Source: an uncultured bacterium (GTDB lineage Bacteria > Chlamydiota > Chlamydiia > Chlamydiales > CAZBXE01). Taken from it: a stretch of DNA of 64,000 nt. The notes below the pieces were generated by a model. The model worked only from the letters and a program-made list of their open reading frames with translations. It was not told the DNA's origin and did not search any database. Shown here piece after piece: positions 55,281 to 58,296 of the stretch (position 1 is the first letter of the stretch; the number at the start of each line of letters is the position of its first letter). The position numbers and the translations under genes are program-made. The stretch spans positions 86,084-150,083 of the forward strand of contig CAZBXE010000005.1 in NCBI GenBank assembly GCA_964496125.1, given 5' to 3'.

Positions 55281-55973
55281 TCAATCGTCCGATAATTCTA
55301 CGGCTCGATCCTTTAGTTTTCTGGCCTCTCTTTTGATAAAATCTTTATCCTCTTTCTGGATCAAGATCTTCTCGGAAACAGCGCCAGCTTTGATAGTCAC
55401 CTCTTTCCAAGCAGAGGAAAGACACTTTAGAAAAAGGTATTTAATGCGGGAAAATAGGCTGCGGGATCGGTAGATGTGGCAATACTTCTTATCCGAACTA
55501 ACAGAGAATGATCCCCATATGTTTTTAAAGGTCTGCTGCTGCAAATTTTTTTCAGGAAAACGAAAGAATTCCATTCCTATACCTGAGGCATAAGCTTCAT
55601 GATCGATAAGGATTGCAACGGGAAACGACTTGCCGAAAACTAATGCAATATCAGTATTAACTGGAGCACTCAACCTTGTGTAGGCTAAAATTTTTCTTGG
55701 CGCTATTTTGTCTCCCTGATCTAAATAGACTGTTTGCCAAAGCCAGGGAAGCACCCACTCTTTTAAGAGGCCTGTGCAAGATGAAAACAGGTCCTTTGGA
55801 ATATGTAAGTAGAGAGAACGCTCGTTTACTCTCATATTGGCAGATCTGCTCCAACCAAAAAACTCAAAACTTATAACTGGCTTGGCCTTTACAGTATCGC
55901 AAGTTCCAAAAAAACTTGGGATCTGCGTAACACTTCCTTTAAACTCAGTTTTTGAAAAACCTATAATCGTCAT
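55281..55973 (-). CDS. Hypothetical protein in the ots operon (about 230 aa)
   Basis: Same strand, 3 nt upstream of otsB. The track ORF overlaps the upstream gene by 106 nt, so I start at the internal Met (MTIIGFSK). No recognisable motif. Confidence 0.55.
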   Translation of the reverse strand: MTIIGFSKTEFKGSVTQIPSFFGTCDTVKAKPVISFEFFGWSRSANMRVNERSLYLHIPKDLFSSCTGLLKEWVLPWLWQTVYLDQGDKIAPRKILAYTRLSAPVNTDIALVFGKSFPVAILIDHEAYASGIGMEFFRFPEKNLQQQTFKNIWGSFSVSSDKKYCHIYRSRSLFSRIKYLFLKCLSSAWKEVTIKAGAVSEKILIQKEDKDFIKREARKLKDRAVELSDD

Positions 55974-56023
55974 GATACACTCGTAAAACGCGAAAAAACG
56001 AGGAATTTTAGAAAAACCAATGT

Positions 56024-56908
56024 TTACTGTAAACCTTTCGTTTTTCTCAACCAAGCGTGGCAAGAGACATATGCATAACCTTCCCTCCGGTATCGCTCTA
56101 TATCGTCTAGATAAGGAGAGTTCAACCATTTAAGCGGACGAAGGGTCACCTGATTAGTTTTTGCAAACGCAAAATTAAAATAAAGCTCATATTCTGAGGC
56201 GTGATACTGGTAAGGATGCAAATTAGGGATAAATTTACAAAAGGCTTCAAAAAAACTGCAGCCATGTGTCTTCTCTACGAGTGCAAATAAATCTTGCACT
56301 ATAGACCTTTGAAAAAGCATATGGTGACAAATGCCAGAATGGTTGGGAAATACTTTTTTAAAACCAGGCAAAAGCTTAACCGCGTGGTCAAAGTAATCTC
56401 TTACATACTCAGTTCCAGTAGCATAGTTGCCACCATGGTTTGTATTAAGAAACCGAACATCATGTAGAAAAATCGTGTCTGCATCTAATATTAAGACATT
56501 GGATGAAATCTCAGGGATGACTAGAGGGGCATAAAGCTTGAGAAGCTGCTGGTAATACCAGCCCACTTTTTGCTCAGTTGGTTTTTTTTTGTTTTTCTTG
56601 TTAACGAGTTTGATCATGTCGTCTTTCGCAAAGGGGAATCCCGCTTCATCAAACCACTCCGCATTCTCTGTAAACCTGCTGGGTGAAACGACAATGATTC
56701 TTCGGACGTTCGCACAATATTTTTTTATCCCTTCAATACAGGGCTCTAAAGTCAGATCTGCATCCTTTCTACAACAAGGAATGACAACATCGATTGGTTC
56801 ATCATTCAGCTCATAACTTCTCTTTTGCCAAAGCTGCGTCTGCTGGCGCGCCTCTGTCATCGCAAAGGTAAAGAATGTACATAGAAAAAATAAAAGAAGG
56901 CGTTGCAT
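56024..56908 (-). CDS. Putative membrane-anchored nucleotide-sugar (GT-A, DxD) transferase
   Basis: N-terminal signal/anchor MQRLLLFFLCTFFTFAMT. IDVVIPCCRKD (Rossmann-like start), GWYYQQLLKL, and the LILDADTIF DxD motif. Confidence 0.6.
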   Translation of the reverse strand: MQRLLLFFLCTFFTFAMTEARQQTQLWQKRSYELNDEPIDVVIPCCRKDADLTLEPCIEGIKKYCANVRRIIVVSPSRFTENAEWFDEAGFPFAKDDMIKLVNKKNKKKPTEQKVGWYYQQLLKLYAPLVIPEISSNVLILDADTIFLHDVRFLNTNHGGNYATGTEYVRDYFDHAVKLLPGFKKVFPNHSGICHHMLFQRSIVQDLFALVEKTHGCSFFEAFCKFIPNLHPYQYHASEYELYFNFAFAKTNQVTLRPLKWLNSPYLDDIERYRREGYAYVSCHAWLRKTKGLQ

Positions 56909-57015
56909 ACGTAAATGCTATACCTTAAAACCACCCTTTAATGCAATTTAAAAAACGTCTTCTTACCCTGAAAACACTTGAAATGAATAACCTTTTTTCC
57001 TAAAATCCCGAGACA

Positions 57016-58296
57016 ATGAACACAGACAGATTCCGAAAAAACCACTTTGCCCCATTAGCATGGGAAACTATTACACCGGATAAACATATACAAAAAACAG
57101 GTAAAACTGGTACAGATCAAGATCGTCTATCTAAAATCCCCGTTGAACTTCTGCTTATGATTTTTCAGCGTTCATCTATAGGAGACCTTTTGATGGTAAG
57201 GCAGGTCTCTCGCTTTTTTAGATCTATCATAGACAATAGCGATCACGTCTGGAAGCAGCGAGGCTTGCCAGTTGACGTGAAAAAATTAAAGCAACGCTTT
57301 CTCTTTCTAAAGCAGCTTACAAGAACAGCAAGAGTTGTGCAACAGAGCTTTTCACTTCGCTCGCTACATCATCTCAGCGACTTTCCCTTCACCCTCTCCT
57401 CATTTACGCACTATGCCCCGAATGTGCCTGTCTACGCCCTTCTTGAAGGCGACAAATTGGGTCCTAGCATAAAAATCCTCAGATACTTAGCTGGGGACCT
57501 GCTTCTAGATAAAGTCTACGAAAATTTTATAACCACAAAACTGGCATGGGGGGGGCTCCGAATAGTCCGACAGACTCCTGAGATAATTCGATTATCCCTG
57601 TCTACAGTCTATCGTTTTAGAACACTTTGTATGTTAAACCTCAGCAAATGTAATCTCCAAGACTGTCCCAAAGAAGTTGGCGCTCTTGCAAACCTAAAGA
57701 TGCTTGATCTTCGATGGAATATGTTTAGAGAACTTCCTGCTCAATTAGGAAACATTACAAAACTTCGATGGCTTTGCGTGTCGAATAACCACTTGACGAC
57801 CCTCCCTTCTACACTTGGAAAGCTGATAGCGCTAACCTCCCTCAACCTATCAGAAAATGCGTTGACGGCGGTCCCAAATGCAATAGCTCAGCTAAGCCGT
57901 CTAAAAATATTACTCATTTCCCACAATAAGCTCGAAAAGGTTCCGCCCGAAATAGGAAACCTTAAAGATCTCAAACAACTTTCAGTCGCACATAACGCGC
58001 TCTCTTCGCTACCCCAAGAAATCGGGGGATTGACTTCTCTTGAAGTGCTTAATGCAAACAATAATAGGCTCTCTAGTCTCCCGAGTGGAATAGGTAGTCT
58101 TTTGCAACTAAAGAGGTTTTTCGTGCAAAACAATCATATCAAAGATCTACCGAATACGTTTGCAAATCTCACATCACTTGTTGTTCTGGATCTTCAAGGC
58201 AACAGTCTCTCTAAGCTCCCCCCTGGTATTGCGGGTTTTACAGCGCTTACCAAACTGTATATCCAACGAAATAATTTTGTTGCAGAGCACAGATGA
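57016..58296 (+). CDS. F-box plus leucine-rich-repeat protein (eukaryotic-like SCF adaptor mimic)
   Basis: aa 38-80 (LSKIPVELLLMIFQRSSIGDLLMVRQVSRFFRSIIDNSDHVW) fit the F-box consensus. aa ~200-420 contain about nine 23-residue LxxLxxLxLxxNxLxxLPxxIGx repeats. Confidence 0.85.
   Translation: MNTDRFRKNHFAPLAWETITPDKHIQKTGKTGTDQDRLSKIPVELLLMIFQRSSIGDLLMVRQVSRFFRSIIDNSDHVWKQRGLPVDVKKLKQRFLFLKQLTRTARVVQQSFSLRSLHHLSDFPFTLSSFTHYAPNVPVYALLEGDKLGPSIKILRYLAGDLLLDKVYENFITTKLAWGGLRIVRQTPEIIRLSLSTVYRFRTLCMLNLSKCNLQDCPKEVGALANLKMLDLRWNMFRELPAQLGNITKLRWLCVSNNHLTTLPSTLGKLIALTSLNLSENALTAVPNAIAQLSRLKILLISHNKLEKVPPEIGNLKDLKQLSVAHNALSSLPQEIGGLTSLEVLNANNNRLSSLPSGIGSLLQLKRFFVQNNHIKDLPNTFANLTSLVVLDLQGNSLSKLPPGIAGFTALTKLYIQRNNFVAEHR

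Follow-up and report, generated by a model that had tools for sequence, protein, structure and literature searches.

An F-box/leucine-rich-repeat protein of an uncultured chlamydia as a probable mimic of a eukaryotic ubiquitin-ligase adaptor

What use might an intracellular bacterium have for a protein that joins an F-box to a long array of leucine-rich repeats (LRRs)? The question is raised by a gene at positions 57016–58296 (+) of the window, by which we mean the whole 64,000-nucleotide stretch of chlamydial DNA analysed here. We consider it probable that the product is a host-directed effector of an environmental chlamydia that imitates the substrate receptor of the eukaryotic SCF (Skp1–Cullin–F-box) ubiquitin ligase, a reading that we base on its sequence and predicted structure. 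The gene is one intact open reading frame (ORF) of 426 codons, to which the coordinates add the stop, and its ATG is the first start past an in-frame upstream stop. Its parts are as follows.

57016–58296, + strand: complete coding sequence of the F-box/LRR protein, 426 amino acids, 48 kDa, isoelectric point 10.1
57016–57126, + strand: N-terminal leader, residues 1–37, hydrophilic and predicted to be disordered (predicted local distance difference test score, pLDDT, below 50 at residues 1–31)
57127–57258, + strand: F-box, residues 38–81 (LSKIPVELLLMIFQRSSIGDLLMVRQVSRFFRSIIDNSDHVWK), above the curated cut-offs of PF12937 and PF00646
57259–57624, + strand: helical linker, residues 82–203, with the family motif SFSxxxLxHLxDFxFxL, conserved in six paralogues
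57625–58293, + strand: LRR solenoid of the SHOC2/Ras-group class, residues 204–426, nine 23-residue repeats and a truncated tenth of 16 residues

Both Pfam models of the F-box recognize the protein. The F-box-like family (PF12937) reaches 35.8 bits over residues 39–81 (cut-off 24.3; E = 6.9e-9) and the F-box family (PF00646) 30.0 bits over residues 38–76 (cut-off 20.5); whole-genome scans agree for both models, which exceed their cut-offs in none of 14 well-known control genomes. Comparison of a 54-residue F-box segment with Protein Data Bank (PDB) sequences gave four matches, FBXW7, Cdc4, cyclin F and FBXO31, every one an F-box protein, all of them gapless and each of them weak on its own (E 0.46–1.6). 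These alignments retain the [L/I]P-x-E motif, the hydrophobic core and the trailing Trp, and the signature residues kept in the protein are I41-P42-x-E44, L45, L46, I49, F50, D57, L58, L59, V64, F68, I71 and W79. We modelled the protein twice with AlphaFold2 (AF2), once at full length from a 40-row alignment (mean pLDDT 73.8) and once as the N-terminal module alone from an alignment of six sequences (overall pLDDT 45.5). The predicted helices of the F-box span residues 43–52, 55–64, 66–73 and 75–81.

The LRR half is regular. Its LxxLxLxxN anchors begin at residues 204, 227, 250, 273, 296, 319, 342, 365, 388 and 411, a spacing of exactly 23, and the ladder position is occupied by Asn in nine of the ten repeats and by Cys in the first. 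Pfam LRR models score highly (LRR_14, 134 bits; LRR_4, 103 bits; LRR_8, 95 bits), the repeats share a mean of 33% and a maximum of 48% identity with one another, and the full-length AF2 model places the solenoid at pLDDT above 90 over residues 200–410. We assign the repeats, on their consensus LxxLxLxxNxLxxLPxxIGxLxx, to the 23-residue SHOC2/Ras-group class; with a period of exactly 23 and an Asn ladder, they differ from the cysteine-containing (CC) class, in which repeats have 24–26 residues. Searches against known structures point the same way. Among PDB sequences the half matches LRRD1 (2.5e-81) and SHOC2 (about 1e-73), and also FLS2 and Leptospira LIC proteins; Foldseek matched it to Leptospira LIC11098, SHOC2, RSU1 and LRRC8, at up to 39% identity and a root-mean-square deviation of 1.2–1.4 Å over about 210 columns, and Leptospira LRR proteins are the closest among the matches listed. 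No Skp2/FBXL or GALA-like protein appears among the best 60 PDB sequence matches and the best 50 fold matches listed.

The architecture had been proposed by an earlier, sequence-only reading of the window, and it has held up in detail. The stretch that this reading fitted to the F-box consensus is the one that both Pfam models place above cut-off, and the peptide that it quoted is identical to residues 38–80, encoded by nucleotides 57127–57255. Its array of about nine 23-residue LRRs proved to be in exact register, nine complete and the tenth truncated, with its two example repeats lying at residues 273–295 and 296–318, and the Pfam search that it proposed returned F-box and LRR models, LRR_8 among them, all above threshold.

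Two further regions bear on how such a protein might act. The first 30 residues have a mean hydropathy of −1.18, and a pattern, N..[HY]F.P[IL], recurs within the first ~17 residues of paralogues that are otherwise only 22–26% identical; we regard this leader as a candidate type III secretion signal. Neither a transmembrane segment nor a Sec signal peptide was found in the protein sequence, in which the peak 19-residue hydropathy, 1.37, is too low for a membrane span. The linker that follows the F-box contains a long helix, residues 88–108, in the full-length AF2 model, and a Pfam scan of the linker gave no family match. Nor did it match beyond this genome. A single-sequence search with the N-terminal 205 residues found nothing in 60 relatives, and the N-terminus had no match in a collection of genome contigs, from which the window's own records may have been left out. 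A profile of the F-box and linker built from the six F-box/LRR paralogues (hereafter A1) matched only the F-box stretch, at no more than 25 bits, in 400 genomes of the order, and among 1.84 billion representative proteins just three, all from this genome, matched it through the linker. By the searches made, the ~120-residue helical linker is thus private to this genome.

The gene is one of a family. The two Pfam models identify 14 F-box loci in the 1.9-Mb genome, a count that the sequence-only reading had suggested making: seven F-box/WD40 genes, one F-box protein with an unmatched C-terminus, and six loci with the same F-box/linker/LRR order as the window gene. The seven with a WD40 propeller lie at C1:218217–222919 (a tandem triplet), at C1:138344 and on contigs C3, C6 and C12, and the unmatched protein is at C5:1675–2940 (+), with an F-box of 26.3 bits and about 350 remaining residues that have no Pfam match. 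The F-box/LRR loci comprise the window gene, a tandem trio on C2, one locus on C1 and one split across the ends of C5 and C14. The trio includes a pseudogene, C2:241476–242333, with stops in the leader and an LRR array collapsed to about one repeat, and the intact C1 copy is followed by a linker-only fragment of a further copy (C1:249774–250253); we take the pseudogene and fragment as signs of gene birth and death. The split copy occupies C5:2–1021 (−), where the contig end cuts it, and continues at C14:2–580 (+) with a 17-residue overlap (AIPREIGNLSSLKSLGL), which places C14 and C5 next to each other, the assembly having broken inside near-identical LRR repeats. As a side observation, a C2/C14 subfamily (C2:243680–246861 and C14:2–580) shares a C-terminal tail, conserved and in part hydrophobic, that reads ...LTALRIA[KR]Q[FW]EGTIMQAMP and is absent from the window protein.

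All six loci have in common the F-box, a Trp after it, the linker motif and the leader pattern. In the N-terminal module the window protein is merely 22–26% identical to the other five, and its F-box is the best preserved of the family (35.8 bits versus 18–25 bits). Its repeats have also diverged further, given that those of a C2 paralogue are up to 91% identical. The gene has a GC content of 42.8% (genome 45.5 ± 2.4%), both GC and GC at third codon positions lie within about one standard deviation of long ORFs, and its codon usage, at the 47th percentile of the genome, is native. Diverged repeats, the best-kept F-box and native codon usage together suggest that the gene is comparatively old and has been maintained, and that it is not a copy in decay. 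The window gene therefore looks like an old, settled member of the family, and the C2 cluster like one that is currently expanding.

Beyond this genome the two halves of the protein are common separately and rare together. Of the 201 genomes of the order that were sampled, 124 have F-box matches, over the cut-off in 117 of them and with up to at least 32 in a single genome, against none in the 14 controls; SHOC2-type LRR proteins occur in 88 of 200 genomes of the order. Of ten N-termini inspected from the best LRR matches, one has a clear F-box, one a sub-threshold F-box and eight no F-box match. The clear case, from another chlamydial family (genome G117, locus L183, C161 ORF 868–2457, −), is a 530-amino-acid protein with an F-box of 39 bits, at least 14 LRRs of 23 residues and a linker of about 130 residues unrelated to that of the window protein. 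Within the order, no other clear F-box/LRR protein came to light outside the family of the source genome, and to judge from its domains it is an independent example of the F-box and SHOC2-type LRR design. The best F-box matches inspected in other genomes have WD40- or β-propeller-like or unassigned C-termini, and none has LRRs. A homologue search with the whole protein is dominated by the LRR half; among the matches examined, only P0040, from a metagenome-assembled genome (MAG), and P0115, a marine protist transcript, combine an F-box with the same type of LRR, and both align to the window protein in the LRRs only. The recurrence of the design within the order, with a private linker here and an unrelated one in G117, points to repeated domain shuffling, or to divergence so fast that the linkers are past recognition.

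The genomic background is chlamydial. The window lies on a 158-kb contig (C5) of a 1.92-Mb assembly in 31 contigs, 96% complete and about 45% GC, and the source genome is the only member of its family and genus among the genomes compared; as far as can be told, it represents a family-level chlamydial clade and not Parachlamydiaceae. It encodes three TLC ATP/ADP translocases and a single FHIPEP (SctV) gene, which adjoins that for SctU, with ychF divergent (C1:81837–88817, L082). SctV is 63–77% identical to the SctV of MAGs labelled Chlamydiae, Chlamydiota, Parachlamydiales or Simkaniaceae, and the placement of sctU-sctV beside ychF is one that we take to be shared with Chlamydia trachomatis. 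No Skp1 domain was found in the source genome, so that any partner of the F-box must be the host's.

The architecture of the protein, the integrity and native codon usage of its gene, a family of six loci that is private to this genome, and a chlamydial background with a type III system and without Skp1, are all observed directly. From these we propose the following sequence of events. The protein would be exported by the chlamydial type III system, guided by the disordered N-terminal ~35 residues, as the presence of export-gate genes and an analogous chlamydial family with functional type III signals (discussed below) lead us to infer. Once in the host cytosol, the protein would dock on host Skp1 by its F-box (residues 38–81, with a predicted three-helix fold), an expectation founded on the intact F-box signature and on the lack of a Skp1 gene in the bacterium. 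The ~120-residue helical linker would then position the LRR solenoid, the concave face of which, nine and a half repeats long, may bind a host protein and expose it to SCF-dependent ubiquitination, and hence to degradation or re-routing.

Several observations weigh against this SCF-directed mechanism. At one core position the F-box has Ser53 in place of the Leu of other F-boxes, those of the paralogues included, and Phe68 replaces the usual helix-3 Trp, although FBXO31 and cyclin F likewise lack that Trp. The F-box helices were reproduced in both AF2 runs but with moderate confidence (pLDDT 65–74), and residues 118–193 of the linker are helical in the full-length model but fall below 50. The pseudogene and fragment in the family are consistent with drift, and Domman et al. 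(2014, Mol Biol Evol; PMC4209131) have argued that much of the chlamydial F-box expansion is possibly non-adaptive genomic drift. The genomes searched hold no orthologue by which purifying selection could be gauged. Among the alternatives, a secreted protein of the same architecture might bind Skp1 with no transfer of ubiquitin, and so titrate Skp1 or the LRR ligand, or shield the bacterium or its inclusion from host SCF. Architecture and context suit such a decoy as well as they suit a working adaptor, and a private linker with no confident fold does not assure productive positioning of a substrate; even so, we think a decoy unlikely, given that the linker motif is conserved among six paralogues, which argues for a defined structure, and that the assembly of working SCF complexes has been described for Legionella AnkB, Orientia Ank5 and Ralstonia RipG/GALA. 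Somewhat less likely still is that the solenoid works alone, as a binder of host or surface ligands like Leptospira LIC proteins or internalins, with the F-box reduced to a vestigial helical cap. The closest structural matches are indeed Leptospira LRR proteins, SHOC2-type LRR proteins are widespread in the order, with no F-box match at eight of the ten N-termini inspected, and Ser53 and Phe68 depart from consensus; yet the F-box passes the curated thresholds of both models and no other in its family is as well preserved, F-box and linker are kept as one module across paralogues that are 22–26% identical, and the protein has no signal peptide for surface display.

That the gene is a neutral product of birth and death, unsecreted or unused and now decaying, strikes us as improbable. 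The degraded family members just mentioned, the lack of an orthologue in 400 genomes of the order and the proposal of drift for such families by Domman et al. (PMC4209131) would all fit, but the 426-codon frame is intact, codon usage is native, and while the repeats diverged to 33% identity they lost neither the exact spacing of 23 residues nor any of the ten Asn/Cys positions of the ladder. Eukaryotic host DNA, mis-assembled or mis-binned, would account for a domain combination that is typically eukaryotic, for the occurrence of an F-box with the same LRR type in protist transcript P0115 and for the deviant GC of some small contigs of the bin. Against this, the gene occupies a central position in a 158-kb contig, has bacterial otsAB genes on one side and nuo genes on the other, and is separated from its neighbours by 107 and 14 bp; it has no introns, and other large contigs carry five loci paralogous to it. 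GC and codon usage typical of the genome make it neither a contaminant nor a recent arrival, and on gene context and codon usage we reject both contamination, which is effectively excluded, and recent transfer. A more specific version of an SCF-directed effector is conceivable, in which the family was assembled independently of the chlamydial NEX1a and Ralstonia GALA proteins from an F-box, a new linker and SHOC2/Ras-group LRRs, and its solenoid mimics a SHOC2- or RSU1-like scaffold that hands small GTPases or PP1-type phosphatases to host SCF for destruction; we offer it as a speculation with little chance of being right, less than that of neutral drift though above that of contamination.

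At the locus itself, the gene listing bears out the sequence-only reading that this is an isolated plus-strand gene between two minus-strand groups. Upstream of it is the group otsA-otsB-unknown-DUF6492 and downstream the group ExoD-nuoN-nuoM, all on the − strand, and no other + strand gene lies between the two; the spacer on the upstream side is divergent and 107 bp long, the gap on the downstream side convergent and 14 bp long. The spacer contains one further feature.

56978–57006, + strand: promoter-like site TTGAAA-17-TAAAAT, 10 of 12 positions matching, within the 107-bp spacer, its end 10 bp upstream of the ATG

This site is weak evidence only, since the region contains two such sites and 3.1 are expected after shuffling. 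No nuoN, DUF6492 or LRR gene occurs within 1.5 kb of the ExoD homologues of 11 relatives, and these relatives are too distant for ExoD synteny to inform on the insertion of the F-box/LRR gene. In the upstream group two genes as listed (55281–56129, −, and 56024–56908, −) share 106 bp, one being a 282-amino-acid ORF that matches no Pfam family and the other the DUF6492 gene; the real start of the 282-amino-acid ORF is probably further downstream.

The window also encodes another protein that may mimic a part of the host's ubiquitin machinery, a RING-H2 protein of 204 amino acids (26202–26816, +) that had been picked out from sequence. Its N-terminal finger scores 41.4 bits with zf-RING_2 and 36.2 bits with zf-rbx1, which confirms the assignment, and no other match to the C3H2C3 pattern occurs anywhere in the genome. 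In concept the protein resembles the RING/U-box NEX1b proteins of Neochlamydia. Elsewhere in the genome, the order at C1:81837–88817 is ychF and then, divergently, sctU, sctV and a gene for a 307-amino-acid protein with no Pfam match, presumably the order found around copN in C. trachomatis. A neighbouring 524-amino-acid ORF (C1:87243–88817) has a marginal BTB match of 20.4 bits. Contigs C16, C21, C26, C27, C30 and C31 have a GC content of 56–63% or 25%, against 44–46% for the main contigs, and are probably contaminants of the bin.

How, then, does this protein relate to systems already described? The F-box/LRR design is already published for amoeba-associated chlamydiae, and the gene is a new example, not a new principle. 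Domman et al. reported more than 370 F-box proteins in the phylum (PMC4209131), which is where the expansion of F-box/LRR families mentioned in the sequence-only reading is documented. Among them, NEX1a of Neochlamydia, with 138 members, consists of an F-box, a conserved region of about 50 residues with no known domain, and C-terminal LRRs; birth-and-death evolution is reported, in a lineage-specific multigene family with pseudogenes, and the NEX representatives tested had functional type III signals in their first 20 codons in a heterologous assay (PMC4209131). The likeness to our family is plain, in the N-terminal F-box, spacer and C-terminal LRRs and in a lineage-specific multigene family with pseudogenes, although there are six loci here against 138. 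Homology to NEX1a beyond the F-box was not found with A1 in the 1.84 billion proteins and 400 genomes, where NEX1a is assumed to be present. With a private linker and no such homology, the protein does not belong to NEX1a, to which it is analogous or, at the closest, very distantly related. It adds one more lineage, a family-level chlamydial clade represented by a single genome among those compared, to the intracellular bacteria that have eukaryote-style SCF adaptors, and seven F-box/WD40 genes alongside an F-box/LRR class in a 1.9-Mb genome echo the eukaryotic pairing of F-boxes with WD40 domains or LRRs.

The class of the repeats sets the protein apart from the better-known F-box/LRR families. 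Eukaryotic FBXL proteins such as Skp2, FBXL3 and TIR1 also have an F-box followed by an LRR solenoid, and share the presumed role of SCF substrate receptor, but their LRRs are of another class, and the window protein has a long helical linker instead of direct packing of F-box on LRRs, as in the Skp1–Skp2 structure, where the F-box of Skp2 packs directly on its LRRs. GALA/RipG proteins of Ralstonia solanacearum are likewise bacterial type III effectors with an F-box and LRRs, for which a role as SCF substrate receptors working via Skp1-like proteins of the host has been proposed (PMC2244805, PMC13243912). The GALA-LRRs are assigned to the CC subfamily, like those of eukaryotic FBXL proteins (PMC2244805), in contrast to the 23-residue, Asn-ladder SHOC2/Ras-group repeats of the window protein, and the phylum and kind of host differ as well. 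SHOC2-like rather than CC-type LRRs imply that these bacterial adaptors are not simple copies of host FBXL genes. The same 23-residue repeat is found in SHOC2, RSU1, LRRD1, plant PIRL and Leptospira LIC proteins, which give the best sequence and fold matches to the LRR half; no F-box protein appears among the names of the matched chains. In SHOC2 there are about 20 repeats, roughly twice the number here, together with surfaces that bind MRAS and PP1C. Identity to these proteins is largely that of the repeat consensus, and no shared ligand can be inferred from it. The SHOC2-class repeats and the private linker give the family some comparative value and leave the accepted picture unchanged. Also similar in presumed action are the characterized F-box effectors AnkB of Legionella pneumophila and Ank5 of Orientia tsutsugamushi, which are translocated and recruit host SCF through Skp1, as we propose for this protein; there the target is bound by ankyrin repeats, and the secretion systems and phyla are different.

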